Positions 27-61,913 of a DNA stretch of 64,000 nucleotides are shown here, piece by piece; positions within the stretch are counted from its first letter, which is position 1, and each line of letters opens with the position of its first letter. The DNA lies in IMG/VR virus record IMGVR_UViG_3300045988_080502, positions 1-64,000 of that record, one strand, 5' to 3'. The position numbers and the translations under genes were made by a program. The stretch comes from a virus. A model generated the notes under the pieces. That model searched no databases. It was not told the origin of the DNA and saw only the letters and a program-made list of their open reading frames with translations.

Positions 27-893
27 TCAAAATTCGACTGGTTGAATGAGGTCTTCGATATAAAGTCTACCTTCTTCCTTAAAAATAGGAATATTGAGAT
101 CGACGAACCAATAATGTTTAAAATGGATTGAACCATCCTCTCTTTCGGTCTCTTCGCAGTCTTTTATGCAACAAGAACCTCTTTGTAAATAGACGGGCAA
201 TTCATTCCAATCTATTCCTTTTTGAGAAATAAGCATTTCTAAAATTTCGCTACTACATTTACCTTGAAGTTCACTATGAGAAAAATTCGCTTGTCCAACC
301 ATTTGAATAGAATTTCTAATAGCATCTAATTGGCGCCAATAAATTAGATTTGTTACTTCTTCTTTCGGAATATTGAAAACACGAGCATCAAACATAGCCC
401 CTCTTGCGTTTGCTATCCGTAAAGTTCTCATATATTCTTGATGTTCAAGTTGAATTTCTACGCTCTGAGGAGTTAAAGAATTTTTCCAACCAATATCGTA
501 TCTTTCAATAGCTGAACGAAACACCTTATTAAAAATCATTGTTGCCATGGACGCTGCTACAGAACACATTTTTTGAACTTCATAATCAAACCATGCGTCG
601 CTATTTAATTTTTTATAGTCAACAAGAATTAGAGTTATTTCATCGCTTTGAGTATATCCAAGAACACATCCTTGGATATTTTCACATAAATATTTCATTG
701 TTTCTTGCATAGCCGAAGTCAATACCGCATCAAATGGTTTTCTAAAACCTTTAGTAAAGGTATGAAATGCTTTTCCATCAATTCTAATTGCTACAGGTGT
801 TCTACGCATAAGTCGAGTTTTTGGAATTTGCTCATAGAACTCTTTCATGCGAGCGCCTAGCTGGTCATTCATATTATTCATCCTCCTTATCAA
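27..893 (-). CDS. Thg1-like protein (tRNA-His guanylyltransferase / 3'-5' nucleotidyltransferase family)
   Basis: Motifs RIDGKAFHTF..KPFD, GYTQSDEITLIL and FDARVFNIP..YWRQ align with the conserved Thg1/TLP blocks (RLDGRNFHRF, AYGQSDEYSFVF, FDGRVVVYP..SWRQ). Confidence 0.85.
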   Translation of the reverse strand: MIRRMNNMNDQLGARMKEFYEQIPKTRLMRRTPVAIRIDGKAFHTFTKGFRKPFDAVLTSAMQETMKYLCENIQGCVLGYTQSDEITLILVDYKKLNSDAWFDYEVQKMCSVAASMATMIFNKVFRSAIERYDIGWKNSLTPQSVEIQLEHQEYMRTLRIANARGAMFDARVFNIPKEEVTNLIYWRQLDAIRNSIQMVGQANFSHSELQGKCSSEILEMLISQKGIDWNELPVYLQRGSCCIKDCEETEREDGSIHFKHYWFVDLNIPIFKEEGRLYIEDLIQPVEF

Positions 894-1605
894 CAGTAAA
901 GATGTGTTCGTCGAAAGTATCCAAGTTTAGAAGAACAGTTTTTCCAGACATATAACTGCAACAGTCAATATCAACTTTATGATTATCACAATACCATAAA
1001 GCTCCACCATTATATAAGTAAGAGAACTGTCTATCTGGCGGTAGAAAATTATTCGCATTATCTAATCTTAGAATTAAGTATTCTGAAATTGGAGTATGGC
1101 CATGAACGCAAATTCCTTCACCTTCGGTAGTATCATAGATATGCTCTCTATCCCATAGCAAATCCTCGTTTGCTGGGAATGGTTCTTTTGCAGGAGTAAA
1201 ACCCGCATGACAAAGCATAATGGTTATTCCATTTTTATTCTTATATTCAAGATATAGGGGCAATTTTCTTAGATAGTGATACCATCCAGACTTAGCTCCA
1301 TCATTAATCCATCCATTAAAAGTAGAAGCTCCTCCATTCCAACAGAGAAGATCAAAATGACCTCCTCCATATGTTTCATATTTAATATAATCTTTCATAG
1401 CTTTAACAAGCATATCTTCGTGATTACCTTTAATATAGATAAAACGCGGATCCGACGCGACCGCTTTAATAGTTTCCCAAGACCGCGGACCTCGATCGCC
1501 GCAATCTCCTAGACAATAAACTTTATCTTCTGGCTTTAGAAAGTCACTAATTTTTTGATATAGCTCATACATACCATGAAGATCGCTAACTGCGTATACG
1601 CTCAT
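874..1605 (-). CDS. calcineurin-like metallophosphoesterase (lambda Ser/Thr phosphatase-like)
   Basis: SDLHG...GDCGDRGP...GNHE metallophosphoesterase motifs. Confidence 0.8.
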   Translation of the reverse strand: MSVYAVSDLHGMYELYQKISDFLKPEDKVYCLGDCGDRGPRSWETIKAVASDPRFIYIKGNHEDMLVKAMKDYIKYETYGGGHFDLLCWNGGASTFNGWINDGAKSGWYHYLRKLPLYLEYKNKNGITIMLCHAGFTPAKEPFPANEDLLWDREHIYDTTEGEGICVHGHTPISEYLILRLDNANNFLPPDRQFSYLYNGGALWYCDNHKVDIDCCSYMSGKTVLLNLDTFDEHIFTVDKEDE

Positions 1606-1685
1606 AAATAAAACTCCCTTTCTTATATTATATAAATATTATATCATAAATATTATAAAAAATAAAGAGAGCTGTAAAGCTCTCT

Positions 1686-2411
1686 TTAAGAAAAGAATGG
1701 ACAAGTTGGCATAGGGGAAATCTTATGTAAATTTCTCTTATGTCTTTGTTCAATGTTTTTATATATCTCATATGGAGGAGTAATACCATTAAGTAGGAAA
1801 TTATCTAGGACATCATAAGAAAATCCTAAATTTTCCTCATCTGTTAAACCGCTTAATCCATCCTCTGGAGGCTTTTCAATGAAGTTCTTTGGCAATCCAA
1901 GCTCAATACCAATTTCTTTAACTTCCGTGGCAGTATAATTAGAGAGAATAGAAAAATCTCCTGCTGCATCTCCAAATTTAGTAGAATAGCCTACATAGTC
2001 TTCACTTCTATTGCAAGTATTCACAACTCTTCCATGACGGCTCGCGGCGATTGCATAAAGGATATTCATTCTTACTCTTGCTGGAACATTACTTGTAACT
2101 TGCGGCTGAATTCTAATATCATTGGGCAAAGACAAGAAAATCTCCTGACAAGATGAACCAATATTGATGTTGTAATGCTCTGTAATTTCGAGGTAATCAA
2201 TTACCTCATTAGAAACATCAATATCATATTGGAATCCCTGTGGCATTTGTACGGCAATTACTCGATTCGGGCCAAGAGCCTTACAAAGAAGAGCCGCAGC
2301 CACTGTAGAATCTTTGCCGCCAGAAATCCCGATAACAGCTTTACACTCCGGCCCGTTTTTTATGAAATACTCTTTAATCCAATCTATAATTTTAGTAACC
2401 GTATTAGTCAT
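1686..2411 (-). CDS. nadE: NH3-dependent NAD+ synthetase
   Basis: PP-loop SGGKDS motif and overall NadE-like length and arrangement. Confidence 0.8.
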   Translation of the reverse strand: MTNTVTKIIDWIKEYFIKNGPECKAVIGISGGKDSTVAAALLCKALGPNRVIAVQMPQGFQYDIDVSNEVIDYLEITEHYNINIGSSCQEIFLSLPNDIRIQPQVTSNVPARVRMNILYAIAASRHGRVVNTCNRSEDYVGYSTKFGDAAGDFSILSNYTATEVKEIGIELGLPKNFIEKPPEDGLSGLTDEENLGFSYDVLDNFLLNGITPPYEIYKNIEQRHKRNLHKISPMPTCPFFS

Positions 2412-3997
2412 AGAACTTCTCCCATCAATCTCTCTTTAATAGTTTCGATAGTCTCTACGCTCTCCGTACAGAAACTTCCATTCTTGACTTTAAATTTCAT
2501 TACATTGTTCTTATATCCAATGGATTCTTCAAGAGTAAGATTTTCTACTAAAGAATAATCGCCATTCTCCTCTTTAAAAATTGCAACACATCCACGAGGA
2601 GACTTTTTCCCAGGGTCGGTTTTAGGCATTTTATAAATCTGAATTTCATCATTGCCGAGGATACAATCTGTAGCTTTAATAGCATAGCCTCTAGTATCAC
2701 GAGTTACATACTGATAAGTATAAGCTCCAATTCCAAAACATAGATTGGATACTGAGATATTATTTCTAACGCACCAAGAGCAAACTTTTTCAGTAATCTC
2801 TGGAGTAATGGCATCTCCATAAATCATACGAATATAAGAAGGAAGAATAAAATATCCTTTAGTATTCAATTCACCGCCAAAGATTTCTTTTAGAAGATTT
2901 AAAGTTCCTATAAACTCAGGAGAACCGGGTACAGCATCTGGGTCGCCGCAGATAATCTTTACTGGGTCTCCACTATCAGGTCGTACAGAGAAACATCCAT
3001 CTCTTGTTGCAATAACATCATGCAACATGGGAAGAACCTTAGATACAATACCCCAATAATCATATGTATCTGATACATAAGTCATAGTTCCAGTAGGTTG
3101 CACTTCTATGCAAAGATAATTGATAAAAAGCATTTCTGCAATAAGGTTAATATCCCAATTATCAAAAGCGGCCTTAGAGAAAAGATAACGCTCAATTTCA
3201 GTTAAATCTCCATTAGTAATCTTCTGCTTCATCCAAGCTACACCTTGTTCAACAACAGAGTGTTCAAGAGAAGGAGTTCCCATCATGGGAGGATTATTCT
3301 CAAGATCTGCTCCATAGTATTTTTCAAGGAGAAGGTTAGAGCCAATGGTTGCAGTTCTATCAAAAGAAAGAGCATGGGCAGCCCCGGAGATATAGCCTGC
3401 CTCAAGACTTGTGTGTCCGCGCAGAGAAAAGTCGCCACACATATGCGGAAGAGCAGACATATCGTCGCAACTAGTCTTGACATAAGGCTCAATTAACTTG
3501 CGGCGATAAAAAGCGGTAGTGGCAGAAGTCGAGGGGAGCCAGTTATTAGCGCTCCACTGATCTTCGATAAATTGCGGAAGCCACGCAAAATTTTGATGAT
3601 TAGAAAAAATTACATGATCTGGAATCCCGACGGGAAGAAGCGTACCCTCTGGAACTCCCATGATAGAAATAGGTAAATAACCAAGTTTATGCAATTCTTT
3701 AAACTTGGTAAAATCCGCATAATCAGGATGGAAAGTATTTTTAATTACATGATTCCACTCCTGTTCAAGAAGCTCAACTGGCTGATCAAAGAACTCTGTC
3801 TGCCAAAATTCAAGCAGTTTCTGGATGGTATATTGATGACCAAAGACCACTGTCTTAGGGCAATTTGGATGGTGCTTATAACTGCGAGCTGTCCAAGTAG
3901 AATAAACCATAGAGGCAGACTTCGGCTGCATCTTAATAGCATGACCAACTTTGTAGTAGTCAGCGGCAAACATTGGAGCTACATCAAAGAAACTCAT
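2408..3997 (-). CDS. NAMPT/PncB-family phosphoribosyltransferase (nicotinamide/nicotinate PRTase; Namat-like)
   Basis: 529 aa. N-terminal DYYKVGH motif matches the D-x-YK-x-H block of NAMPT/NAPRTase. Adjacent to NAD-related genes. Confidence 0.75.
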   Translation of the reverse strand: MSFFDVAPMFAADYYKVGHAIKMQPKSASMVYSTWTARSYKHHPNCPKTVVFGHQYTIQKLLEFWQTEFFDQPVELLEQEWNHVIKNTFHPDYADFTKFKELHKLGYLPISIMGVPEGTLLPVGIPDHVIFSNHQNFAWLPQFIEDQWSANNWLPSTSATTAFYRRKLIEPYVKTSCDDMSALPHMCGDFSLRGHTSLEAGYISGAAHALSFDRTATIGSNLLLEKYYGADLENNPPMMGTPSLEHSVVEQGVAWMKQKITNGDLTEIERYLFSKAAFDNWDINLIAEMLFINYLCIEVQPTGTMTYVSDTYDYWGIVSKVLPMLHDVIATRDGCFSVRPDSGDPVKIICGDPDAVPGSPEFIGTLNLLKEIFGGELNTKGYFILPSYIRMIYGDAITPEITEKVCSWCVRNNISVSNLCFGIGAYTYQYVTRDTRGYAIKATDCILGNDEIQIYKMPKTDPGKKSPRGCVAIFKEENGDYSLVENLTLEESIGYKNNVMKFKVKNGSFCTESVETIETIKERLMGEVL

Positions 3998-4445
3998 AAA
4001 ATCTTCCTTTCCTTATTTCTTAAATATATTATATCATATATTTTTATAAAAATAAAAAGCCCTCTTTATGAGGGCTTTTATCAACTTTGAAGCAAGCTAA
4101 GCAACGCTTCAATTCCTACATATTCTGGCGCAATCGCACAAGTAATAAGCGGAACACTAACCATTACGCCGACTACTAATACAAACAATAATATAAATAG
4201 CAGTAAATGCCATCTACTATAATCTGCTTCCATCATTATATATAACACAAACCACACTATACCAATAAGTAAGAGGCCAGCAAAAACTCCTATAAAGAGA
4301 GTTGAAGTCAGGTCTTTAACGGTTACATATCAACCATATTTAGCCAACCACATGGGAGCGTTTTCCATAATAGTTTGAGTTGTTACTCCAAAAAATTCTG
4401 CGAGCGACTGAAGAATAGACGCGAGAGTCTGCTCTAAAGATAGAT

Positions 4446-4895
4446 TCACTTTAACAACCCTCCAACAACAGCACTTACAATCTTCATATCTACCTTACCT
4501 TTAAGCTCCATAGAAACAGATTTCATAAGCGTACCACGATTTGCTTTGAGGAGATCAATACCTGCGGTTCCCGCAATCTCTCTTACTTTTGTTTCAATTT
4601 CTGCCTTATCAGTAATAAGCTGAGGGGCGCACATCTTTACGACCTTCATATCCTCTTGATACTGATGTAATTTTTCAGGATAACTAGCAGGACAGGTATC
4701 AATCATTTCTTGTACTGTCTTTTGGTATTTGATAAGGGTTTCATCAACTAGCTGCTCAGTTAATTCAACTCTTCCTTTTGGAGTAATGGCTGCTTTCTGA
4801 CACGCATCAATCATATCAGAAAGCACCCTCTTTGTATTCATATCTCCATTTTTAAGAGCCATAATCTTTAACTCTTGAAGTTTCTCAATCGTCAT
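4446..4895 (-). CDS. GatB/YqeY-domain protein
   Basis: 149 aa helical protein with the YqeY-like pattern. Confidence 0.55.
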   Translation of the reverse strand: MTIEKLQELKIMALKNGDMNTKRVLSDMIDACQKAAITPKGRVELTEQLVDETLIKYQKTVQEMIDTCPASYPEKLHQYQEDMKVVKMCAPQLITDKAEIETKVREIAGTAGIDLLKANRGTLMKSVSMELKGKVDMKIVSAVVGGLLK

Positions 4896-5704
4896 CTTAC
4901 AATCTCTACCTTTCCTCTAATATCCCACTCTGGCTTGAAGATGCTATCAGAAGTGAAGATTTTCTTCACAATATCTTGATTATACATATCACCCTCAATC
5001 ATGGTATGTTCTGCATGGGTCACATACAGATAAACATTCTTTGCGCCAGCTTCTTTGAGGGCATTTGCTGCATGATAAAAAGTTCCACCACGAGAGCAAA
5101 TATCGTCTACAATTAAGACATTTCTCTCTTTAACAATTTCCTCATTCATTAATTGCAAACCAAGAATTTTTCCAGTAGACCAATCTCTTTTCTTAATTCC
5201 AAAAGCATAAGGAAGACTAATGGGTGGAGCAGAATATCTCTTCATCGCTCCTTCATCTGGGAAAAATAGGATAGGAATTTCTCCTTCATATTCCTCAGTT
5301 CTCTTAATAGCCTCTTTGATTTCTCCAATTGGACTAAGATCAATAACTCTATCAAGTAGAGCTAACGATACATTAGAATGAGCATCACGCACAATAACTT
5401 TATCAAAATGAAGGCTATTAATTACTTGACAGAAGTATTTTAGAGTAAATACATCTTCAAGTTCTTGAACTCGATCCATCCTTGCATGAGGAATATATAG
5501 CATATCTAGGTTTACAGGGAAATCTTCGAAATGTCCCTTAACACAAATGAGAGTAAATAATTCTGCATCATTCTCGTACTCCCAAACAATCGTATCATAA
5601 TCGAAGTAGTTGGGAGGCATGTTAATATGCAGCGTACCATCTGGAAAATGATTTTGTTCAATTACGTCTGTCCAATGACTGCGTGTATTAATTAGACTAA
5701 TCAT
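4892..5704 (-). CDS. Prs-family phosphoribosyl pyrophosphokinase-like enzyme (PRPP synthetase / Adps-like)
   Basis: Type I PRTase PRPP-binding motif VLIVDDICSRGGT near the C-terminus. Lies between the NAMPT-like and nicotinamidase-like genes. Confidence 0.6.
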   Translation of the reverse strand: MISLINTRSHWTDVIEQNHFPDGTLHINMPPNYFDYDTIVWEYENDAELFTLICVKGHFEDFPVNLDMLYIPHARMDRVQELEDVFTLKYFCQVINSLHFDKVIVRDAHSNVSLALLDRVIDLSPIGEIKEAIKRTEEYEGEIPILFFPDEGAMKRYSAPPISLPYAFGIKKRDWSTGKILGLQLMNEEIVKERNVLIVDDICSRGGTFYHAANALKEAGAKNVYLYVTHAEHTMIEGDMYNQDIVKKIFTSDSIFKPEWDIRGKVEIVR

Positions 5705-5707
5705 TTT

Positions 5708-6280
5708 TTAATCCTCCACATCAATCTGCTGGGCTTTGAAAATAGTTAGCGCTGCTTCATGCGATTCTGGAGTTACTCCTGCACACGCACTAGAATGGAC
5801 GATAATTCTAGTATTTGGCATCGCCGCACGAAGCATAACTGCATTAGCCATAACGCAAATATCGGTACAAAATCCACAGATATGAATTTCTACTTCCTCG
5901 GGATTCTTCATTTTTAGAGAATCGTATACTTCATTGACCATATCAGTACTGCCGAAGGTATCTTTTTCATAATAGTTAAATTTGTTATTCAACGCAACCA
6001 TAATTCTGGAATCCATACACCAGCCCACACTTGCTTTGATACAATGTTTAATGGGAAGTCTTTTTCCTTCCAAAGTATCAAAGTAATCATTATCATGGGT
6101 ATCCATGGTACAAATAACTTCCTCCCAACAGAATCGTTTAATTAGATTAACGATATTAGGAACCGCGGCATCCGCTGTCTTAGATCCCAAAGAACCAGTA
6201 ATAAAATCATTCTGCGCATCTACAATCACAAGAAGTCTATACATATCATAATTCCTTTCTTTTATATAAATATTATACAA
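5708..6280 (-). CDS. isochorismatase-family hydrolase (nicotinamidase PncA-like)
   Basis: VIVDAQNDF ... catalytic Cys in the CGFCTDICV cysteine-hydrolase signature. Confidence 0.7.
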   Translation of the reverse strand: MYNIYIKERNYDMYRLLVIVDAQNDFITGSLGSKTADAAVPNIVNLIKRFCWEEVICTMDTHDNDYFDTLEGKRLPIKHCIKASVGWCMDSRIMVALNNKFNYYEKDTFGSTDMVNEVYDSLKMKNPEEVEIHICGFCTDICVMANAVMLRAAMPNTRIIVHSSACAGVTPESHEAALTIFKAQQIDVED

Positions 6281-6491
6281 TATTTTATTATAAAATTAAA
6301 GGAGAGAATATACTCTCCTTTAATTTAAAGTTTAATTGGTTATAGAATTGCGTTTATTAGTACACAAAGAAATGTAGCTCCAATGCCAGTATAATACCCA
6401 AGATAAAACTCTTCATCAACTGGGCCAAAAATAGTTTGAACCGTATAATAAACAAAGAGCATACCTACCGCTCCCAAAATAATTCCTAACA

Positions 6492-7763
6492 TTAGATCTC
6501 TTCCTCCTGAGCCTCTTCCATGTCAGGTACATTCTCACTTTCTTTAATAATTCCCTCGATGACTTTAAACTCATAAGTCTTAGACTTAAAAGCTGTGAAA
6601 GCACGACGATTTACAATTCGGACAACGACGCCCTCTTTTACATGGGTGCGGCCGATCGGATCAGTGAGATCTTCGAAGTATTTGTTAATGCGCTCCTGCA
6701 AATCCTCTATGGTAGTAAATTCAAAATCCTCAATCACAGGAACTCGATTAAAGCCATGAGCATTACACCATTCAGTAATCTCGTCAGGAGTCCACTCTCT
6801 TTCTCCATTTTCAGAGGTAATACGATAAATATACATCTTGCTCTGACCAGGCTCACATCCATAAGAGAAAATAGAACGCTTACCAAACTGCTTTACAAAA
6901 GCCTTATCATTGACTTTGGTATTATCTCCGATAGGCATAATGGTGTTCTCTTCATTAGGGCCGTAATAACCCACTACTTCGTAGAAAACTTCCATTCCGG
7001 GCTCAAGATAAGGTTTCAATGCTTCATGATGTGGCATACGAAACTGGTCATTTCCATAAAATCCCTGAGAGTTCTCTGTGACTACACAACGACGAGTTCC
7101 AAGAACATAAGCCTGCTTAGTGCGCTTTTTCATATGGAAGAGGCGACGGAAGAAACCATTAGGAAGCTAAGCATAAGTATTCATAGAGCGCTGAGAAGTT
7201 CCGTGCATTTTAAGGGTCATATTGAGAATATCTCCGGAGCGGAACTTATCAAGATTATATGCCAATTGTTCAGTATCAGTATGCATAGAGAACTCAGGAT
7301 ATGTAATTCCCTCAGCCTTACGACCTTTATAAGAAGTCTTAACCTGACCAGTGGGAGTCTTGCGCTTAGGAATGTATTTACGGCAAAATTCTTTGTCGTT
7401 GATAGTGTTTACCTTATCTCCATCTTTCCAGTTCTGATTTCCGAATTTTTCATAAACTTTATCAAGAGCAATTACAACACCAGAACTCTGATTGCCGCGA
7501 AGCTTAATAGCCCTGATATGTCCATTATTTTCGATGTAGCCACCCTGAGGAGTTCCATCCTCGTTCTTGCGGAAGAGGCAAAATTCATTCCCGAACCATC
7601 TCTCAATCTCGCCATCAGTAGGAAGATAAAGAACCAACTGACCGGTTTGCATATCAGGGCCGACAATTACGCCCTCATTGAAACAATCTGCAAGATAAAG
7701 GCGGTCACTATTCTCGTCCTTCCGCGCATTCTGCAACTTAGTTACAAGACCAAAATATGCCAT
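6492..7763 (-). CDS. ATP-dependent RNA ligase (Rnl2-like) with one in-frame TAG at 7167-7169
   Basis: ORFs 7167..7763 and 6492..7133 are in the same frame, separated only by a TAG. KMHGTS matches the Rnl2 KxHG lysine-adenylation motif I. Confidence 0.65.
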
Positions 7764-7782
7764 TCTATATCATTCTCCTTTC

Positions 7783-8121
7783 TTACCATTTATCATATCT
7801 GTCATGATCAGGATCTTCCTCAACAGTAGTTACCAAATAGGAAAGCCAACCTTCAATTTCCTCTTGATATATACCAGAGATTTCATCTTCATCTTCTTGG
7901 GTCAGTTCATCTTCGGTCAGTTCATTTTCTTCGCAATATTGCTCTCGAATGTCTCCCTCAGACAAAATTCCGTGCATACCCTCATAAGATTGGTACTCTT
8001 CAATCGCTAGCTCTCGAGCGGCTTCCTCGGCGTCTTCTCTAGAGTCATAATCTTCTGTGCAATGATATTGATACCCGCCAAATCCTCCGCCCAGGCCTGC
8101 GTATAAATTATATTTAGCCAT
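7783..8121 (-). CDS. hypothetical acidic protein
   Basis: ORF with RBS; very acidic C-terminal half. Confidence 0.4.
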   Translation of the reverse strand: MAKYNLYAGLGGGFGGYQYHCTEDYDSREDAEEAARELAIEEYQSYEGMHGILSEGDIREQYCEENELTEDELTQEDEDEISGIYQEEIEGWLSYLVTTVEEDPDHDRYDKW

Positions 8122-8929
8122 TTACTCTCCTCCAACCCATTCCGTAGTAGTGGTTACCACCCTTGATAGCTTTCTCGATGTTTTTTATCGTATTTTCAAG
8201 ATTGAAATGCTCATAGGCGTCAGACTCGCATTTATTTTCTTTAAGCCACAATGCAGCAGCTTCAACACTAGTAAAAGTATTTGTAGCCCGCTTCTTAGAA
8301 TTAACAATGCAAATAGTTCCAGCAGGATAACCAGCTTTATTCCATTTAGGAATAAAAACACTTTCTTTATTAGTTGCTTTCCTCTTCCAATCAGCGAACA
8401 TTTCATCAAGTGTTTCTCTTGATGTGTTACTTATAAAATCATATACTTCCTTTAGTAGAACTGCATCATCTAAGGAGTTGTGATTTTGTTCAGCAGAAGG
8501 ATTAAATCTTCTGAGAGTATTCAAAAGACTGTGATTACATTCCCATTTCAGCTCTTTTTTGCACATCTTGGCATAATCTCGATAATTGCCACAAATATAT
8601 CCCAACGCCATTTTTGCTTTAAGTGCAGTCGCATGACGAGAAGTATGTCGAATAAAATCTCCATCAGAATTTCCCCATACAAGAAATTCTGGTGCGTCAT
8701 CTAGATTTTCAAACAACCAATCATAGAACTTAGAGAATACGGCATCGGCAGACATAGCACTATCAATCATCTCTGCTGTGATACCAGTAAGATTAGTAAT
8801 GAAAGGAGTAATTTTACCTTTCTTTGGTGCTACGAGTGCATAAAAAGTCTGACCATCCTCTCTGATACATCCGACAGAAATAATTTCCTGCGAAAATTGC
8901 GTAGCCTCAAAGTCGATAAAATATTTCAT
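8114..8929 (-). CDS. DEDD-family 3'-5' exonuclease (DnaQ-like)
   Basis: N-terminal FIDFEAT...SVG ExoI motif. Confidence 0.65.
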   Translation of the reverse strand: MKYFIDFEATQFSQEIISVGCIREDGQTFYALVAPKKGKITPFITNLTGITAEMIDSAMSADAVFSKFYDWLFENLDDAPEFLVWGNSDGDFIRHTSRHATALKAKMALGYICGNYRDYAKMCKKELKWECNHSLLNTLRRFNPSAEQNHNSLDDAVLLKEVYDFISNTSRETLDEMFADWKRKATNKESVFIPKWNKAGYPAGTICIVNSKKRATNTFTSVEAAALWLKENKCESDAYEHFNLENTIKNIEKAIKGGNHYYGMGWRRVNG

Positions 8930-9191
8930 TACTAATAATCTCCCCTCTTAATAATTTTGAAACTCCATTGTTACAGGAAGAACTTTGTGTTTCTGTTCAA
9001 ATTGATCCCAAATTACCTCTTCTCTTGACACTATTACCTTCATAGGTTGTGATTGAGAAGCAATTTGTTGAACAGTTTGAATAAATTTAATCTCTATGAA
9101 TGGTCTCGGCGCCTGCATTCTCCATTGTCGAATAATTTGATTATCTAGATAGATACTAAAAGTAACATCAAAAATATCTTCATTCATGACA

Positions 9192-9539
9192 TTAATAAAC
9201 ATCATATCCCTGCCTTCTCATTACAGCCAATGATTTATATACCATTTTACCCATGCTCTTACTTTTTGCTTTTGTTACATTTCCCATTTCAATTAAATGA
9301 GAAAGAATACGAGCCATCTTCTGAGGGCTTAACCCTGTTAATGTAATTGATCTTTGCTGAATTTGCTCAATAGTAAGAGCCTCTTCGCTATCAGCAAGAA
9401 TTACCATTACTTCTCCTTGAAACAAGGCGTTCTGATCTTTTGTATATTTTGAAGTTCTGCGACCTGGCATATTACTGTACCTCCTTATAGGAAATAACCC
9501 TAATATTTTCAAGTTTTTCAGTATAGGAAGTCCTGCCAT
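9192..9539 (-). CDS. hypothetical protein
   Basis: ORF only. Confidence 0.35.
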   Translation of the reverse strand: MAGLPILKNLKILGLFPIRRYSNMPGRRTSKYTKDQNALFQGEVMVILADSEEALTIEQIQQRSITLTGLSPQKMARILSHLIEMGNVTKAKSKSMGKMVYKSLAVMRRQGYDVY

Positions 9540-9718
9540 TATAGATAACTACAATCTTATTCTCGCGGTCAACGCCAACAATCTTACCATCACGACCGCT
9601 AAGAGTCTTCACGATTGTTCCTTCACATACATAAGGCATCATATAAATTACTTCCTTTCTTAACTTTCTATATATATTATATCATATAAAAATAAAAAAA
9701 TAAAGAAGATGATAATGG

Positions 9719-46240: not shown

Positions 46241-46346
46241 TGATTGTTCTATTGTTTATAATTTTAGAAAAAAGTTTAACAAATTTTAGGACAAAACCAG
46301 AAAATTATGTTATAATAAAAGTAAAGAATAGTAGAGAGGTGATTTT

Positions 46347-46490: not shown

Positions 46491-46505
46491 AGGAGATTAA
46501 ACTAA

Positions 46506-46727
46506 ATGACTAATGATACTTATAAAGTTTTTACGGTAAAGTTAGCACGCAAACTTTGTGATCTTGGTTTTATTATTGTTGGAACTGTTCCTAATGTTTA
46601 GAAACCTTGGTTAAATGTTTATCTTTTTGAAGATAGTTAGGATTTAAGGGATGCAGTTTAGAAGTATAAAGGGATAAGTTCGCTATTGGAGGATGATTGC
46701 CATGGCAGACAAAAGAAGAAGTCCTAA
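46506..46727 (+). CDS. small hypothetical protein with 3 in-frame TAG
   Basis: Codon-by-codon frame check: TAGs at 46599, 46638 and 46659; TAA stop at 46725. Confidence 0.45.
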
Positions 46728-47091
46728 TTAGCGAACTATTAATCATATTCATAAGGAACCATGTGATACTAATAATATATATGCTAGGATTAATAAGGAA
46801 GCGTTATTTGCGGCCCGTAGAGAGTTGACAGATGGAGAGTTTTCTTTGTGGATATTTTTTGCTAGTCAATCTGAGAAGTTAATTGATTATGATTTTGGGC
46901 CTACTATTATAGAAAAAGAGCTTGGTATAAAGAGAGCGAAATATACAAGTGCAATAGATGGATTGGTAAAAAAGGGATATTTAGTTCCAGTTGAGAGAAA
47001 AGGATATTACGATTTTTACGAGATTCCTATTGATAGTGACGACGATAAGTATAATTATATAGCTCCAGATGGAGAGAAATTTTCTTTTTAA
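46702..47091 (+). CDS. hypothetical DNA-binding-like protein with 1 TAG (46729)
   Basis: ATG 46702 is in frame with track ORF 46825..47091. Confidence 0.45.
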
Positions 47092-47118
47092 TCGTATTTC
47101 TGCAATACTATAAAAAAA

Positions 47119-47420
47119 TTTCATGTATTTCTGAGAATACTATGATTTCATCATATTGTGAAAAAGCTATGAAATTTTCATGTATTTGTTGGAAAACGAT
47201 GAAATTGTTTTCATGGTATTCTGATAATACTATGAAATTAAATAAAAAGGATTTTCATAGCTTTCCAACAATACCATGTCATAGTATTCTGACAATACCA
47301 TGAAAGTAAATAAAAATCCATTTCATGGTATTCTGACAATACAACAAATATAACATATATTAGATAACAGAATTAAGATAACAGTCGCGACTTTTTCATG
47401 TATTTGTGAAAAAGCGATGA
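47119..47420 (+). repeat. array of ~6 related repeats with palindromic core CATGGTATTCTGACAATACCATG
   Basis: Units at ~47119, 47177, 47208, 47273, 47316 and 47393. Noncoding, between the plus-strand small genes. Confidence 0.6.
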
Positions 47421-47436
47421 GTAGGAGGATTAAGGC

Positions 47437-47703
47437 ATGGAAGTATTTAAACCGATTAAGGTAGAAAATTATCAATTCATGAAGAATGGATTAAATTAGT
47501 ATGAACCAGTATTAGTTTACTTTAAAGATGATGAAGAAGAAGGCAAGGTATATTTTGTAAAGAATAAATTTGATGATAAGTTAGAAGAATGGATGGAAGA
47601 GAATTTAAAGGTAGAAGGAAGAAGTAGAGTTATAGTAGATAAGTATAGATGTTTTTACTCAAGATTTAGAGGACTCTATAACCGATTTAGAAAAACGAAT
47701 TGA
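47437..47703 (+). CDS. hypothetical protein with 1 TAG (47497)
   Basis: RBS gtaggagga; frame verified to TGA at 47701. Confidence 0.45.
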
Positions 47704-47963
47704 AAAGTTAGAAGAAGGTTTTAGAGAAATCGAATTGAAAAATCGAGATAAAAATGGAGAGATATATGAAGGATAAGAGAGATAAATAGAACTGGATAGA
47801 GATGTAGATTATCTTTATATGAAGATTGAAAGAAATTAAAGGAAATTAAAAGAAGTTTATAAAATGATGGAGTTGGGTGCCGATCGGGTCTAGGTACGAA
47901 CCATCATAACACTCGTCACACCGATCGTAAACCTAGCCTTCCGCAATTATAATATATATAAAA

Positions 47964-47996
47964 AAGGAGAGAAGCTACAATACTTCTCTCTCCTTT
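47964..47996. terminator. bidirectional terminator hairpin between the plus-strand block and the minus gene 48013..48468
   Basis: aggagagaag ... cttctctctcct stem flanked by A/T runs. Confidence 0.5.
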
Positions 47997-48012
47997 AATC
48001 TTTTTCCTCTTG

Positions 48013-57127: not shown

Positions 57128-57868
57128 ACCTTTAGCAGTTTGTCAATACCTTTTTTGAAATTTTTTAATTTTCAAAGTGCCGTGCTTTTGTCTCTGTCCT
57201 ACTGGACAAGTCCAGTTTACCACCAAAACGCTCACTTGTCAATAGTTTTTTTGAAATTTCTTTCTCTCTCTTTTGCACAAAATAAATAACATCTTGTTGT
57301 GCAGTTTGCACAAACCCTTTACGCGCGCGTATTCCTTTAGGGGCGTGCTTTCTTGCTTTCGTACTTTAACGAGTGAAAGAGGCCAACTACACTTCAATAC
57401 TTTACCATGTGAAAGAGGGGCGTGTATTTTGGGAAAAACTGGAAATTTTTTTGTAAAATCGTTCTGCCACGCCATTTCAAAATCTAAATCGACTTTTCAA
57501 TCTCAATAACGAAAAAGAGAGAAGAACTCACTTCTTCTCTCCGCATTTACACTTCTTTTTTAAATTATATATAATATGATCTTCTACTTTGTAAATTGGA
57601 TATAATTCTCCACAGACTGCGCATATATTATAATAATGCTTGCCGTCAAACCATACTAATACTTTATCCATCGTCGGTTGCCTCAAAACTAAAAATCAAA
57701 TTATATCCATCCTCAGTTTCTATCGTTTCATATCCTTTTAAGATATATCCATCCTCTAGTTTAATATTAATCGCATCAGATCTCCACATTGTAGGAATAT
57801 ACTCTAGCCTTGGATAACGATTGTTCTCCTCCACGCAAGCAGTCAACAATAGTAAAATCAAAACTATA

Positions 57869-58306
57869 TTAATTATAAAGCTGATACTTCTTCCCAATTT
57901 TGTCAATTTCTTCCGCCTCCATTGGCCTAAATCCAATACACGTCAAAGTCCCTTCCGGGCCTTCGCGTTCTAACTCTGTTCTACAAGCATCATAGATAAG
58001 CCAATAATCCTTATTCTCTTCCCATCCTAATTCTTCTGCTATCTTAACAGCCTTTAACAAATCATTCTTATTCTTCGCTCTACAAACTACTTTGGTCTCC
58101 GCTTCCGCTATCCAATTATGGAATAAGTCTCTATCGAGGCTTATTCCTATATGATACATAAGACCGTCTCTTTCTTTAACAACTTCTTTACTTCCCCAAT
58201 ATAACTTTTCCAAAAGAAAAGCAATAGAAGCATGGGAAACTTGTGCGGCAAGTTTCCCTGGAGACATATTTAAGTCTCGCCTCGCAATAATTAATTGCTT
58301 GAACAT
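57869..58306 (-). CDS. peptidyl-tRNA hydrolase, PTH2 family
   Basis: RRDLNMSPGKLAAQVSHAS matches the Pth2 signature. Confidence 0.7.
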   Translation of the reverse strand: MFKQLIIARRDLNMSPGKLAAQVSHASIAFLLEKLYWGSKEVVKERDGLMYHIGISLDRDLFHNWIAEAETKVVCRAKNKNDLLKAVKIAEELGWEENKDYWLIYDACRTELEREGPEGTLTCIGFRPMEAEEIDKIGKKYQLYN

Positions 58307-59121
58307 TTTTCCAAAACCTCCAAGAAAATTCTAAAATTGCGGGAATTGCGGTTTGGAATCGCAAAATAGATATTTGGAATATTATAATTGCGGGCTGCGT
58401 TTACGAGCAAGGTGGCGACCGTTGATGGATCTTGCATAAAAACACCACAGCCCCAGGCTCCCGCGATTAAATTTTCCACTCCCTTAACCTCGGCAATTCG
58501 ATACATAAAATTAATTCTCTCTTCCATTATCCTATTGTTTAGAGAAAGAGGAACTTGCTGATAAGTATGTGCTGTTCTATAATTAGGAGAAGCACAAGTA
58601 ATTACATCAGCTAATTTTCTACTATCGTCTTTTTCAAAGACTACATCAGGAGTATAGATAGCTCTATCAAGATATAGGGCTCGATTCAGTCTCTGTCTAT
58701 TCCATGCGTAATAAGTATCATCAAAAGCAAGAAGAATAGGATAAAGGTTGCTTTCGTGACACAATGCCTCTTCTTGTGCAGAGCTACCTCCAAGGAAATA
58801 ACCACCTGGATGTTTATAGCTTGCATAATTTAAGATCGCAGTCTTGCTCCGATCGGTTAAACCGAATAGGCAGGATACACTATCTTGGTCTTTAAGATAA
58901 AAGGTATTATGGTGGGTTTCTCGCGGTTTTTGCGGAAAAGGAAGATTGGGGCCAAAAATTTCAGAGTTTATAATTGCGCGATCTGTATCTTCCCTGAGTC
59001 TCACTTTAATGTCTGCGTAATGCGATTGCGCGTGTTGTTTGAGCTCTTCTCGTTTCATTGCAGTTTCCTTTCTTCCGTGCGGTTGGGCAGAAGTGGATAA
59101 TTTAATTATCCCAATCTTCAA
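58291..59121 (-). CDS. macrodomain protein, bacterial-type PARG-like (DUF2263-like)
   Basis: GGYFLGGSSAQEEALCHESNLY and AGAWGCGVF motifs. Confidence 0.6.
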   Translation of the reverse strand: MKIGIIKLSTSAQPHGRKETAMKREELKQHAQSHYADIKVRLREDTDRAIINSEIFGPNLPFPQKPRETHHNTFYLKDQDSVSCLFGLTDRSKTAILNYASYKHPGGYFLGGSSAQEEALCHESNLYPILLAFDDTYYAWNRQRLNRALYLDRAIYTPDVVFEKDDSRKLADVITCASPNYRTAHTYQQVPLSLNNRIMEERINFMYRIAEVKGVENLIAGAWGCGVFMQDPSTVATLLVNAARNYNIPNIYFAIPNRNSRNFRIFLEVLEKCSSN

Positions 59122-59659
59122 ATAAAGTGTGTAAACTATTTGTTTCCGCCGCTAATCTCTTTAAATATTCTTTAAGCATTTTATTTTCTTTAACTTTAAT
59201 TGCATAATCGCAAGTATTGTCGCAGTCTGGTGTGTACTACCGACCGAATCTATTATAACAATAATCAATGCAAGGACACATTTTACTCATATTTACACCC
59301 ATTCATTCTACAGTCTATTGTGCATTGCCCTGACGCTCCTTCACAAGGAATAGCATCAGGATAGTATTCAAAATAAGACGAGGTTAATAGAACTTCATAT
59401 CCAAGTTCCCGCAGTATTCTTTCTGCGACATATCTATCTCTTAATTTAATCCATTCTTCTCTATTTACTTTTGTTTCTTCATATATTTTTCGAGATTCTT
59501 CCATATCTATTGTTATGATACCATCGGTGTTAGTTTTAAATACTGAAGGACTTTGTGTATGATAAAATTTTCGAAAGGGATTGTTAATATGAAGAACTTC
59601 TTCAGCATATTTGTCAAAATCTCCCGAAAATTTCATTATCTTTGCGCCTGTTTCGCTAA

Positions 59660-60421
59660 CTATAAACAATTTTTCATCAACCCCAATCTTGTTAATAGAC
59701 CTACTCCTCCGGGGACAGGAGTTGACCATACATTATTTCTTTTTGCAATTTCATCAATTTCTACAAAGTCTCCAAGAATAATTCCTGCTTCATTTCTGCG
59801 AATACCAACATCTATAACAATAGCGTTAGGACAGGCTTCTCTTGTTAAGCTAAATTTTCCTACCGCAGAGACAATTAAATCTGCTTGCCTTGTTAAATAG
59901 AGTTTTGTATTTATATCTGTTTTGCTATGACATACTGATACGGTCATATTTCTATCCAGTAGAGCTTTAGCCATTGGCTTTCCTACAATATCGCTTCTTC
60001 CCAAAATAACAGCAGATTTACCTTCGTAGTTAAAACCACATTCATCCAAATAGTCTATAATTCCTCTTACTGTTGCTGGAGTAATATTGCTCATAGGATT
60101 TAAACCATCCGCATCTTTAGAGATAGGTATTTGACTATAATTGAAATCAATTCCATTTGCTACTGGCATTTGAACTATTACCGCATCCCAGTCTTTCGCA
60201 TGGCCTAAGAGTAATCTTAACTCTACTGAACTATTCGCTCTAAACACTTCTGCTTCCCAACCAAGAGCATTAAAGTCTTTTATTTTATTACGAATATAAA
60301 TTTGATTTGCGGGATCCTAGGCTGTTGCGTCGATAATCATGAGTGATGGAACATTACCACTAATCTCCCGCAATTTGTTTACCTATTGTTGAAAATATTC
60401 TTTTATATTAATCTATTGCAT
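59660..60421 (-). CDS. folD: bifunctional methylene-THF dehydrogenase/cyclohydrolase FolD with 3 in-frame TAG
   Basis: ATG 60419-60421 with RBS ggagg. DPANQIYIRNK, DAVIVQMPVANGID, ILGRSDIVGKPMA, VIDVGI, TPVPGGVG. TAGs at 60413, 60383 and 60317. Confidence 0.75.
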
Positions 60422-60866
60422 CTGGATTAAGCCTCCAAGGGTCACTAGTATCGTAATCAATCATTTCATAGAAAGATATTTCATTTTCATTAACTTCTAA
60501 TACCTAGTGAGGAATACACTATACTTCATAGTCAAAATCTTTATTAATATGGTAAGAAGTATATATATGAATAGCAATAGGTCTAGGATCATTAACTCCC
60601 TAAATATCCCATAAACTTATTGCTTTATTTTGGAAGATTTCCTAAGCATACTATGGAGATATAGCAATACTGATTATTAAGATATTAAAATAATACTATG
60701 CTTTTTTCGGTAAATCTAAATATGGTTCGTCAAAGAACATTGGCAAACAAATCTCCTATCTTATTTTTTATAATTATATTATAACATTTTTAAATAAATT
60801 AATCAAATAAGATTTGACAATCTAGTTTTTTTTTGTTATTATATGAGTATAAAAGGAGATGACAGT

Positions 60867-61913
60867 ATGATAAAATTAGATTATACTATTGAGTCTCCAG
60901 AAGAACGGAAGGCGCTTGTCGAAAAAATAATCGCAGAAAATCCGAACCTTAGTTCGAGTTATTTAGAAATATTAGCAGATTATTTAGTTCTATGTATGGA
61001 AAAGCAAGAGAAGAAAGAAAAGAATATATTAACAGATAATAGAATGGCTACTGTTAATAAAAGAGAATGTTCTTTCGAAGGGCTTGCGTCATAGATGGAA
61101 AATGGCGAGGATGGCATTTATGGTTTAATGTCAGAAAATAAAAATGTTATATTTTAGCCAAAGATTTCTATTACACAGAAAGATTTAGATACTATACCAT
61201 GTTTAAAATAGTTGAGAGAAACCATTAATGTCTGGGAGGGCGCTTTAAAACGCGCTGCTGGGACAAAATAGGCATATATGATGAAAAAAGCATTAATAGA
61301 GATGCGAAAAGATTAGTATATCATTAAGCAAGCATATTAGAAACCTATTATACCATGTAAATTAACGAGATCCGTAAGAACTCATATTCCTCTTGATGAT
61401 TAGAGTTATCTTAATGGACAGGAGGTAGTAGTAAAGGGTATTTCGCTAATGGACGCCAATGTTGTTTCTGCTATTTTATGCAATTATTCAAAATTAAAAG
61501 AAGATAGTTATGATTAGTTTGAGGGAGATACATGGTATTTAATTCAATCATTTGAAGAAATATGTGATAAAGCTCTCAAAGACTTTCCAATCTATTTACG
61601 AATTGTTGAACTCAAAATTGATAAAAAGTAGAATAACGAAATATAGGAAATATTAAAAAATGAGTTTGGTAAAACATATAGCGTTGAATATATTTCTAGC
61701 CTATGGAGAAATAAGATTCCTAAACTCATTGCGGAAGAAGCTTTAGAAGATTTTTTACGTTGGTAGTATAAACAAAAAGGATACCCAATGAAAAAATGTT
61801 CTAAGTGTGGGCAATTAAAGCCAGCCCATAATCAATTCTTTTCAAAGAATAAGACAAGTAAGGATAATTTGTATAGTATCTGTAAGCGCTGTCGCAATAA
61901 GAAAAGAGGTTGA
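60867..61913 (+). CDS. hypothetical protein, 349 codons with 12 in-frame TAG; C-terminal zinc ribbon
   Basis: RBS aaggag. Single frame open to TGA 61911 apart from TAGs. Ends KKCSKCGQLKPAHNQFF..CKRCRNKKRG. Confidence 0.55.

Follow-up and report, generated by a model that had tools for sequence, protein, structure and literature searches.

Accessory enzymes of a TAG-recoded gut phage: FolD, a PARG-like macrodomain protein and a Pth2-type peptidyl-tRNA hydrolase encoded in one gene cluster

Organization of the locus

Genes for FolD, a PARG-like macrodomain protein and a Pth2-type peptidyl-tRNA hydrolase lie together on the minus strand at positions 57869-60421 of a 64-kb stretch of DNA (the window) from a phage genome of ~100-146 kb. 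The trio is intact, has matches in Pfam, NCBIfam and the PDB, and sits where the original prediction had placed it; the cluster is divergent from the late, packaging block, upstream of which the original prediction had put it. The operon genes overlap or abut one another, and they are predicted to form a single minus-strand transcription unit of ~3.3 kb that extends from ~60,806 to 57,516, divergent from the TAG-rich late genes. The features of this unit, and those elsewhere in the window that bear on its interpretation, are the following.

60778..60806, minus strand: candidate promoter of the leftward operon, sigma-70-like, TTGATT-17-TATAAT with TG upstream (consensus match only)
60408..60740, minus strand: ORF110, TAG-rich first gene of the operon, 36-93% identical to its relatives
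59636..60421, minus strand: FolD (methylene-THF dehydrogenase/cyclohydrolase), 261 aa, four in-frame TAG codons
59283..59636, minus strand: ORF117, uncharacterised small protein, a stable member of the module
59102..59302, minus strand: ORF66, small Cys-rich protein, one TAG codon
58291..59058, minus strand: putative bacterial-type PARG / TIGR02452 macrodomain ADP-ribosyl hydrolase, 255 aa, no TAG codon
57869..58306, minus strand: predicted Pth2-type peptidyl-tRNA hydrolase, 145 aa, no TAG codon
57664..57936, minus strand: small lipoprotein-like protein, with a basic N-terminus, a hydrophobic stretch and an LTAC lipobox, judged by eye
57528..57686, minus strand: ORF52, the unit's last gene, encoding a small Cys-containing protein
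57516..57542, minus strand: intrinsic-terminator-like hairpin at the end of the unit, an 11-bp stem followed by a T run (consensus match only)
28263..28583, minus strand: tmRNA gene within the tRNA array, tag (A)DEDYFENYLAA, UGA stop (Rfam match)
17979..18054, minus strand: amber suppressor tRNA, anticodon CTA, G73, Gln-like acceptor stem
27..16676, minus strand: RNA-repair and NAD-salvage supercluster

The small genes of the unit, namely ORF117 and ORF66 between FolD and PARG, ORF110 upstream, and the lipoprotein-like gene and ORF52 downstream, were absent from the original prediction. Neither ORF110 nor the lipoprotein-like protein, whose gene accompanies Pth2 in relatives, has a match in Pfam or PHROG. 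ORF117 carries an invariant C-terminal motif, PC-x5-QC-x3-C-x4-C; its structure model is weak (pLDDT 64, and below 50 in the Cys-rich C-terminus), and profiles of its family retrieved nothing credible from the PDB or Pfam. All relatives examined, with PARG identities that range from 40 to 99%, show synteny of the cluster, which is thus not a chance adjacency. Among GenBank phages, a blastn search with the region returned only terminase-level similarity.

The phage is large, comes from the gut, translates TAG as Gln and has relatives among phages of the Enterococcus phage H1/EF1 type. It has in common with the code 15 gut phages (Borges et al.; 'Phassvirus' phAss-1, PMC10607447) a suppressor tRNA-CTA, ~30 tRNAs, TAG codons concentrated in late genes, Enterococcus phage EF1 relatives and a human-gut origin, and it resembles in this the 'Phassvirus' phages, a published group with Clostridia as predicted hosts. 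Pth2, PARG, FolD and tmRNA are not discussed in those code 15 papers. On its RNA side, the supercluster at the window's opposite end includes Thg1, two metallophosphoesterases, an RNA ligase, an RNase_T exonuclease and RlaP; it also holds YqeY, MVP/Band-7 and DUF2828/DUF7788 proteins, as well as the NAD cluster that the original prediction had invoked, consisting of NadE, a NAPRT/NAMPT-family enzyme, a PRPP-synthetase-like protein and a PncA-like isochorismatase. Ribosome rescue is nevertheless represented in the genome by the tmRNA gene, which was found by Rfam and missed by ARAGORN.

Identity and motifs of the three enzymes

For the ORF at 58291-59121 the original prediction had proposed a PARG-like macrodomain and had asked whether profiles would instead assign another fold; sequence profiles and the AlphaFold/Foldseek comparison both point to a macrodomain. 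That ORF begins at TTG, and the ATG at 59058, with an RBS-like gaaaggaaa upstream, is the likelier start. The protein scores 92.8 bits against PF10021 (E 3.5e-26; GA 23.5) and 167.7 bits against TIGR02452 (cutoff 50), and its sequence matches the PARGs of D. radiodurans and T. curvata. Its AlphaFold model (pLDDT 91.8), a macrodomain fold with an N-terminal helical extension, matches T. curvata PARG (3sig) in Foldseek (E 6.5e-18, TM 0.81), with a TM of 0.79 to 5zdc and of 0.4-0.55 to generic macrodomains. The signature region reads PGGY-FLGGSSA-QEE, in which the 7-residue spacing is kept and the third Gly of the canonical GGG-X6-8-QEE is Tyr; among 108 full-length homologues scanned, the residue found there is M, F, G, Y, L or K, and the QEE is kept in all but three. 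The QEE is also invariant in a 22-sequence alignment (A1), as are G200, A201, G203, C204, G205, V206 and F207 of the diphosphate-binding loop GAWGCGVF. The phage protein thus has the same fold (TM 0.79-0.81) as T. curvata PARG (3SIG), D. radiodurans DRB0099 (5ZDA-G) and S. coelicolor SCO0909, and has the QEE, the GAWGCGVF loop and a size of ~255 aa in common with bacterial-type PARGs (DUF2263 / PF10021 / TIGR02452). It differs from them in being only 24-30% identical, in the Tyr of its signature, a position that is variable across the subfamily, and in being phage-borne, in an operon with FolD and Pth2. The PARG-like protein can be described as an intact, putative glycohydrolase of the macrodomain type.

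The start of the Pth2 gene, which has GGAGG upstream, overlaps the PARG stop by 16 nt. An archaeal/eukaryotic type had been predicted for its product, in agreement with a match to PF01981 over profile positions 1-115 of 115 (E 1.4e-22; 80.5 bits, GA 23) and with matches to the archaeal Pth2 structures 1rlk, 1wn2 and 1xty. In the 1xty alignment, the catalytic residues of S. solfataricus Pth2 (Lys18, Asp86 and Thr90 in its own numbering) have K18, D106 and T110 as their counterparts in the phage protein. Compared with archaeal and eukaryotic Pth2 (S. solfataricus 1XTY, human PTRH2/Bit1), to which it is alike in its full-length profile match and its K18/D/T positions, the phage protein has a ~24-residue insertion after helix 1 and two 4-residue insertions. 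Phage PTH2 has been annotated before and has been treated in the literature (phrog_1866; Enterococcus phage H1 gp150, Xanthomonas phage XacN1), whereas adjacency to PARG is a feature of the phage family represented by the window.

FolD, described as TAG-recoded in the original prediction, is full length only if its four TAGs are read as Gln; under the standard code, all that stays open is a 195-aa C-terminal fragment. With TAG as a sense codon, and only then, the protein matches PF02882 (E 3.2e-38; 131 bits, GA 27) and PF00763 (E 3.7e-09; 37.3 bits, GA 32.8), and residues 6-258 match the FolD structure 3p2o (E 1.7e-36). The motifs QIYIRNK (YxxxK) and GRSDIVGKP (GxSxxVGxP, dinucleotide binding) are kept and align to 3p2o, so that this protein shares with E. 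coli FolD (1B0A) and the phage family phrog_7320 the two Pfam domains, the YxxxK and the motif for NAD(P) binding. Compared with FolD equivalogs, on the other hand, it is divergent, with a score of 162 bits where the NCBIfam equivalog cutoffs are at least 333. Pth2 likewise falls under its NCBIfam equivalog cutoffs (82.7 against 126, and 65.5 against 82), and an altered specificity is therefore possible for both enzymes.

Codon use, ancestry and decay

The whole phage family is TAG-recoded, and a relative (L003) has TAG at the conserved Gln of the FolD 'PANQIY' motif. TAG accounts for 28/49 of the Gln codons in three late genes, for 6/7 in ORF110 and for 4/13 in FolD, whose TAA stop shares bases with the start codon that follows (TAATG); full-length FolD could therefore be made only once the suppressor tRNA is active. 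The corresponding shares are 0/9 in PARG and 0/3 in Pth2, and both genes are TAG-free in all relatives checked, except for single in-frame stops in the PARG alignments of L027 and of the frameshifted L043. Because they lack TAG and have their own ribosome-binding sites, PARG and Pth2 should be translatable in the standard code of the host, before the code switch, and their codon content suggests early expression.

Enterococcus phage H1, which uses the standard code and has a terminase related to that of the window, helps to place these genes in time. Its Pth2 gene lies 1.3 kb from FolD, in the order ThyA-endolysin-DHFR-Pth2-(4 genes)-FolD beside a tRNA array; H1 lacks PARG, and neither ThyA nor DHFR was found within the 64-kb window. 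Phage FolD is already known, in H1 beside ThyA and DHFR. FolD and Pth2 would have been inherited together from standard-code ancestors, with FolD gaining its TAG codons in the subclade of the window. The enzyme would interconvert 5,10-methylene-, methenyl- and 10-formyl-THF, and given its ancestral company of ThyA and DHFR, its likeliest job is one-carbon supply for dTMP, purines or formyl groups.

Within the family gene order varies, PARG and Pth2 being adjacent in both orders, and PARG behaves as a present-or-absent cassette, as in L178 versus L179. Every one of the four possible combinations of the two genes is seen: both are present in L012, L020 and L178, PARG occurs without Pth2 in L027 and L013, Pth2 occurs without PARG in L179 and L090, and both are degraded in L006 and L043. 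Natural alleles of either gene are often broken by frameshifting deletions of 10-16 nt, as in cluster P0010 (60 member sequences) and P0166-P0170, and this frequent inactivation implies that in many settings neither PARG nor Pth2 is needed. An obligate two-enzyme pathway, suggested by the adjacency in both orders and the joint decay in L006 and L043, was rejected because of the PARG-only and Pth2-only genomes.

The same patterns bear on whether the genes are drifting cargo in a recombination hotspot, now devoid of selective value, a reading to which the shuffled gene order, the presence or absence of PARG and the many frameshifted alleles would lend themselves. It is nonetheless extremely unlikely, since both ORFs are intact in the window and most relatives, catalytic residues are conserved across 40-99% identity, TAG avoidance is family-wide, and the genes are kept in deeply diverged relatives. 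The cluster looks instead like a set of separate, dispensable accessory functions rather than a device for coping with an altered code, and the reading that we favour, at a probability of roughly 0.55, is that its enzymes are independent of one another and form no single pathway, with PARG and Pth2 guarding RNA and tRNA.

Likely roles of PARG and Pth2

Bacterial-type PARGs are borne by phages on 184 IMG/VR stretches, as well as by Lak megaphages and by Bacillus phage G (gp114). In a set of 79 viral loci representing 26 PARG lineages, the neighbours include metallophosphoesterases, a CCA-adding enzyme, RlaP/Pol-beta and DUF2828 proteins, and an RNA ligase (PF09414) immediately followed downstream by an AAA_33-HD kinase, although RNA-repair neighbours are absent in about half of the lineages. 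The Deinococcus DRB0100-0099-0098 operon, a ligase-PARG-HD/Pnk arrangement already pointed out (PMC11833690), likewise places an RNA ligase and a kinase-HD protein beside PARG. In bacteria, where only multi-phylum clusters were used and high-GC Streptomyces loci gave spurious ORFs, PARG occurs with KptA/Tpt1, NADAR, ARH and NrtR at 20 of 80 loci. The PARG of the window is flanked by ORF66 and Pth2, and not by an RNA ligase, a kinase-phosphatase or a nucleotidyltransferase; the RNA-repair genes of this phage (RNA ligase, RlaP and phosphoesterases at 874-11273) lie ~45 kb away.

Recent work has shown that bacterial PARGs undo the ADP-ribosylation by RhsP2 of 2'-OH groups in RNA, as well as 5'-phosphate ADP-ribose adducts, and protect cells (2025; PMC11833690), and action on 2'-OH RNA adducts was shown for PARG-type enzymes, unlike DarG or NADAR enzymes. 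Orphan ADP-ribosylhydrolases of phages, namely AdfN (NADAR, T4-like phages) and AdfM (DarG2-like macrodomain, chimalliviruses), reverse DarT ADP-ribosylation of DNA bases. Like these, the protein of the window would be a stand-alone eraser of ADP-ribose with no cognate toxin, and one that could plausibly have been taken over from the conflict systems of bacteria; it belongs to a different hydrolase class, however, whose chemistry targets ribose-ribose or phosphate linkages, and this difference would imply a different toxin. The original prediction that the PARG counters ADP-ribosylation-based defences is plausible in this light and can be refined, in that the neighbourhoods (RNA repair in phages; operons with KptA, NADAR, ARH or NrtR in bacteria) make RNA the likely substrate, and protein or DNA a less likely one. 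The PARG would most likely strip ADP-ribose from ribose-2'-OH or phosphate-linked adducts on RNA, tRNA or nucleic-acid ends, and would do so either within RNA repair or as an orphan eraser that opposes the ADP-ribosyltransferase toxins of the host. The presumed hosts are not known to have an ADP-ribosyltransferase defence.

A more metabolic role, in which the PARG takes part in an NAD+/ADP-ribose conflict by degrading ADP-ribose oligomers or signals, or by freeing ADP-ribose for NAD+ salvage, draws on the NAD-salvage cluster of the window, on a gene of the AAA_28 (NadR-kinase-like) family that overlaps the PARG start in L013, on NrtR, a Nudix-type regulator of NAD metabolism that heads bacterial PARG operons, and on the proposal of Iyer et al. 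that phage Macro and NADAR domains degrade ADP-ribose-derived signals. Yet PARG has not been demonstrated to act on any known immune signal, its gene lies apart from the NAD genes of this phage, and the most consistent cross-phylum partners of PARG (KptA, RNA ligase and kinase-HD) act on RNA, so that such a role appears improbable. Hydrolysis of cyclic ADPR, the Thoeris signal, was considered and left as speculation, since the anomeric configuration probably differs. It is less likely still that the PARG erases the marks of a phage-encoded ADP-ribosyltransferase, in a reversible modification of host proteins resembling the T4 Alt/Mod takeover. Phage ADP-ribosyltransferases are well known, Iyer et al. 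report PARP-like ones in a few jumbo phages, and the window covers only 64 kb of the genome; against this, no ADP-ribosyltransferase, KptA, ARH or NADAR was found within the window, and none is among the frequent neighbours of PARG at the 79 viral loci.

The original prediction combined two proposals, that Pth2 frees ribosomes stalled at TAG, and that PARG and the NAD+ cluster counter defences based on ADP-ribosylation of protein or DNA. That PARG and Pth2 could precede the code switch, that a NAD-salvage cluster is present and that phages do encode hydrolases reversing DarT DNA modification are consistent with it. Host ribosomes reaching UAG are terminated by RF1 and are not stalled, however, so that there is no stall for Pth2 to relieve, and Pth enzymes act on peptidyl-tRNA that is already off the ribosome. 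Moreover, Pth2 has homologues in standard-code phages, its linkage to FolD in H1 implies that it was not acquired for recoding, and a published comparative study connects phage PTH2 with what follows tRNA damage (PMC7824862). With PARG-type activity demonstrated on RNA adducts and PARG neighbours drawn from RNA repair, the combined model is very unlikely, and its first part, the rescue of stalled ribosomes, is not supported.

A gentler connection with recoding would run through its side effects, whereby amber suppression causes read-through of host and early phage ORFs that end in TAG, and stalling at mRNA 3' ends, tmRNA rescues the ribosomes, and Pth2 clears the peptidyl-tRNA that drops off. 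The tmRNA gene (-LAA tag, UGA stop) in the tRNA array fits such a scheme, as does its absence from the 25-kb tRNA region of H1, where no tmRNA was found, but this comparison is of one recoded with one standard-code genome. A 2002 study by Ueda and colleagues is said to have found that suppressor tRNAs increase SsrA tagging in E. coli, which would count in favour; the recoding preprint mentions neither tmRNA nor Pth. As Pth2 is older than recoding in this lineage, and is degraded or absent in some recoded relatives, we regard this explanation too as improbable. On the favoured reading of independent accessory enzymes, Pth2 would hydrolyse peptidyl- or N-acyl-aminoacyl-tRNA off the ribosome and return tRNA to the pool when translation is damaged.

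The enzyme families are all known, and annotations of Pth2 and FolD exist for other phages, which makes the cluster itself no surprise. What it brings to light is that PARG-type hydrolases are common in large phages yet unannotated, and that they occur beside RNA repair in phages and beside KptA in bacteria. The link between Pth2 and recoding has been removed as unsupported, and in its place stands the question of whether the cost that amber suppression incurs through read-through is cushioned by tmRNA and Pth2. A broader suggestion, tentative and on present evidence rather unlikely, is that phage-borne bacterial-type PARGs constitute a widespread and undescribed class of counter-defence or RNA-repair enzymes that erase 2'-O- or phosphate-linked ADP-ribose from tRNA and further RNAs, and that the PARG, Pth2 and tmRNA of the window make up a translation kit. 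If this were true, gut bacteria would commonly use RNA ADP-ribosylation as a weapon against phages, and the kit would keep translation going under toxin attack and would also absorb the load of non-stop ribosomes that arises from amber suppression. The concrete idea that emerges is that some host defences may ADP-ribosylate RNA, and that phages may carry the eraser.

Composition of the transcription unit

The window derives from a large phage in which TAG is a sense codon, and its three plus-strand late genes hold 28 in-frame TAGs in total. Its terminase region shares ~69% DNA identity with Enterococcus phages H1, EF1 and VRE9; 'Phassvirus', a distant EF1 relative, comprises recoded gut phages of ~136 kb with Clostridia as predicted hosts (PMC10607447). 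TAG is reassigned to glutamine: in a related locus (L003) it occupies the position of the conserved Gln in FolD's 'PANQIY' motif, and the suppressor tRNA has Gln-like features, namely discriminator G73 and acceptor bases GCGGA common to the phage's own tRNA-Gln(TTG). Pth2, PARG and FolD are three members of an eight-gene unit of abutting or overlapping genes, ordered ORF110, FolD, ORF117, ORF66, PARG, Pth2, a lipoprotein-like gene and ORF52, with Shine-Dalgarno-like sequences upstream of ORF110, FolD, PARG and Pth2.

Features of the unit, the adjoining late genes and the RNA genes
57542-57516, minus: strong terminator-like hairpin (consensus match only)
57869-58306, minus: Pth2 (PF01981, end-to-end match, E 1.4e-22); TAG in 0 of 3 Gln codons
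58291-59058, minus: PARG-like protein (PF10021 and TIGR02452 passed, the latter scoring 167.7 bits where the cutoff is 50); TAG in 0 of 9 Gln codons
59283-59636, minus: ORF117, small uncharacterised family (67 representatives at 50% clustering); TAG in 0 of 2 Gln codons
59636-60421, minus: FolD (both Pfam domains, YxxxK motif, dinucleotide-binding motif); TAG in 4 of 13 Gln codons
60408-60740, minus: ORF110; TAG in 6 of 7 Gln codons
60806-60778, minus: sigma-70-like promoter candidate for the leftward unit (consensus match only), back to back with a late-gene candidate
from 60843, plus: late genes for a sigma-factor-like protein (phrog_5767, start 60843), a YonG_N/phrog_3314 protein and the large terminase; TAG in 28 of 49 Gln codons
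17979-18054: suppressor tRNA, anticodon CTA, one among 30 tRNA genes
28263-28583, minus: tmRNA (Rfam RF00023, 76.8 bits, E 4.6e-28), within the tRNA array and adjoining tRNA-Lys

The identities originally predicted for the three minus-strand genes are borne out by profile and structure matches. For PARG, where the start is most likely ATG at 59058 rather than TTG at 59121, the structure model (pLDDT 91.8) matches the PARGs of T. curvata (TM 0.81) and D. radiodurans (TM 0.79), ordinary macrodomains reaching only 0.4-0.55; the fold is thus that of a PARG-like macrodomain, as had been proposed. The catalytic QEE is invariant in an alignment of 22 sequences and, with the GAWGCGVF loop, is retained in almost all of 108 full-length homologues scanned. 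The window's protein has Tyr in place of the third Gly in the textbook GGG signature, a position that varies across the subfamily. Residues 6-258 of FolD align to FolD structures only with four TAGs translated. The last of these, at 59660, is indicated to be read through, because the TAA stop overlaps the following start codon (TAATG) and because the C-terminal tail goes on past that point in relatives without that TAG. The ORF117 family, found with FolD, PARG and Pth2 in most of the examined members of this phage family, has no relative in Pfam or PDB; its invariant C-terminal PC-x5-QC-x3-C-x4-C motif is a possible metal or Fe-S site.

Back-to-back sigma-70-like promoter candidates occupy 60778-60867, and the plus-strand -10 ends at 60842, directly against the annotated ATG (60843) of the sigma-like gene; therefore, either the mRNA is leaderless or a downstream Met at ~60867 is used. 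The C-terminal tail of the sigma-like protein is Cys-rich and HNH/endonuclease-VII-like. A short island at 46000-48000, within an otherwise minus-strand-coded region, combines a low GC content (0.30) with a markedly positive GC skew (+0.31), which suggests either an inserted element or a small number of plus-strand genes.

Variation and code use among relatives

Close relatives keep the unit in synteny, and its content is shuffled in the wider family, where terminases are 74-90% identical.

Arrangements in the wider family
L012: FolD, 77-aa ORF, PARG, Pth2
L020 and L178: FolD, ORF117-like, Pth2, lipoprotein, PARG
L179: as L020 and L178, PARG absent
L027: ORF117-like, PARG, FolD; Pth2 absent
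L013: FolD, several genes, AAA_28, PARG, DUF5662; Pth2 absent

All four combinations of presence and absence occur, and PARG and Pth2 are thus not obligate partners. Damaged copies are also found: in L006, where several deletions lie inside ~1 kb with flanking genes intact, a deletion has removed the PARG QEE motif and Pth2 is shattered, L043 combines a Pth2 lacking K18 and the Asp with a frameshifted PARG, and PARG is frameshifted in L090. Near-identical metagenomic alleles carry recurrent 10-nt and 16-nt frameshifting deletions, which truncate PARG after ...NYRTAH (proteins P0010, P0013, P0015 and P0020; P0010 stands for a cluster of 60 member sequences) and Pth2 after ...AEELG (P0166-P0170, P0176 and P0185), respectively. 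Counter-selection, deletion-prone sequence or assembly artefact may be responsible. A reading of the unit as one system was rejected on the shuffling, loss and breakage of its genes; PARG and Pth2 behave like accessory genes that occupy a variable slot and can be dispensed with.

In the examined members of the family, PARG and Pth2 are all but free of TAG, the sole in-frame stops being one in L027 and one in the frameshifted L043 PARG alignment; the late genes of the same members carry 0-13 each. At the late-gene rate, zero TAG in 400 codons has a chance of ~2e-5. Under the model of the recoding preprint, in which standard-code-compatible genes are expressed first, TAG-free PARG and Pth2 could be produced before the code switch, and full-length ORF110 and FolD could not.

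Pth2 and its proposed role in ribosome rescue

K18, D106 and T110 of the window's Pth2 align with the catalytic K18, D86 and T90 of the S. solfataricus enzyme; the protein has a ~24-residue insertion and scores below the strict NCBIfam equivalog cutoffs. It had been suggested that Pth2 could rescue ribosomes stalled at recoded TAG before enough suppressor tRNA accumulates. At UAG, however, host RF1 releases the chain and the ribosome does not stall, and Pth enzymes hydrolyse peptidyl-tRNA only once it is off the ribosome. Cultured standard-code phages also encode homologues, and in phage H1 the genes run ThyA, endolysin, DHFR, 'putative peptidyl-tRNA hydrolase', four small genes, FolD and tRNA array; PARG is absent. 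Because the Pth2-FolD linkage is present in standard-code H1, it predates recoding; both genes are inherited from standard-code ancestors, and the ancestral company of FolD is the thymidylate and folate cycle. The proposed TAG-handling role is undercut on both counts. PTH2 has already been noted in a jumbo-phage comparative study, which placed it with tRNA-damage repair (PMC7824862).

A modified version, as yet only a lead, is that the need for rescue would arise once suppression has begun rather than earlier; tmRNA would then do the rescuing and Pth2 would clear the products of drop-off. It is worth testing because suppressor tRNAs reportedly raise tmRNA tagging through read-through to mRNA ends. 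The recoded phage does carry a tmRNA, missed by ARAGORN, with tag (A)DEDYFENYLAA and stop UGA, and none turned up in H1's 25-kb tRNA region, although this comparison has one genome per side. The window yielded no SmpB-like motif, and neither tmRNA nor Pth is mentioned in the recoding preprint. Rfam also gives a 117-nt tRNA at 25779-25895 (minus; 49.8 bits), unlisted by ARAGORN, which may contain an insertion or intron.

PARG neighbourhoods and a probable link to ADP-ribosylated RNA

Among large viral contigs, PARG-like genes are commonplace, with 184 stretches in IMG/VR, and unannotated examples occur in Lak megaphages, two huge uncultured phages and Bacillus phage G (gp114); a literature search found no discussion of phage-encoded PARG-type enzymes. 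Among 79 viral loci, forming 26 PARG lineages at 70% identity, a metallophosphoesterase lies immediately upstream in 28, and nine loci of two lineages have, directly downstream, an RNA ligase (PF09414) and then an AAA_33 kinase-HD protein. CCA-adding enzyme, RlaP/Pol-beta nucleotidyltransferases, DUF2828/DUF7788 and RNase_T exonuclease also recur, and about half of the lineages have no RNA-repair neighbours. The window has the same gene set 45 kb from PARG, intermixed with NAD salvage genes and Thg1. In bacteria, PARG shares operons with NrtR, NADAR, ARH and the RNA 2'-phosphotransferase KptA/Tpt1 in 20 of 80 loci, two of them Lachnospiraceae MAGs with KptA on the same strand 0.8-2.0 kb downstream of the PARG start.

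A minus-strand supercluster at 27-8947 encodes a Thg1-like tRNA-His guanylyltransferase, metallophosphoesterase, NadE, a NAPRT/NAMPT-family enzyme, YqeY, a PRPP-synthetase-like protein, a PncA-like isochorismatase, the PF09414 RNA ligase (1 TAG) and an RNase_T exonuclease; the 64-kb window showed no NMN/NaMN adenylyltransferase. A group of genes at 9719-16676 (minus) resembles an RNA-repair scaffold set. It encodes a metallophosphoesterase, an RlaP nucleotidyltransferase, a major-vault-protein/Band-7-like protein of 813 aa with MVP shoulder and vault repeats, and a DUF2828/DUF7788 protein; DUF2828 and RlaP-like genes also recur beside PARG in other phages. In L013 (5483-6004) the AAA_28 gene, whose family includes NadR-type ribosylnicotinamide kinase, overlaps the PARG start, which hints at an NAD-metabolite link in that lineage.

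Recent work has shown that, of the hydrolases tested, only bacterial-type PARGs reverse the 2'-OH RNA ADP-ribosylation made by RhsP2, that they also free 5'-phosphate ends of the ADP-ribose added by Tpt1-type enzymes, and that they shield cells against the RhsP2 toxin (2025, PMC11833690). The same study highlights a Deinococcus ligase-PARG-HD/kinase operon, which some phages mirror. Phage 'orphan antitoxin' ADP-ribosylhydrolases from classes other than PARG-type, AdfN and AdfM, are established counter-defences. The best-supported inference is that the window's PARG acts on RNA or on nucleic-acid ends, from which it would remove ADP-ribose.

The original observation was correct in content and position, and its interpretation was half right: the link between Pth2 and recoding is not supported, and the ADP-ribosylation theme is plausible in a refined form. 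PARG is a mobile cassette, and its associations point to repair of ADP-ribosylated RNA. The cluster is an accessory operon whose enzymes belong to known families; nothing joins Pth2, PARG and FolD in a single mechanism, and nothing ties Pth2 to recoding. Of use beyond this cluster, PARG-type enzymes are widespread and unannotated in phages, and a recoded phage carries its own tmRNA.
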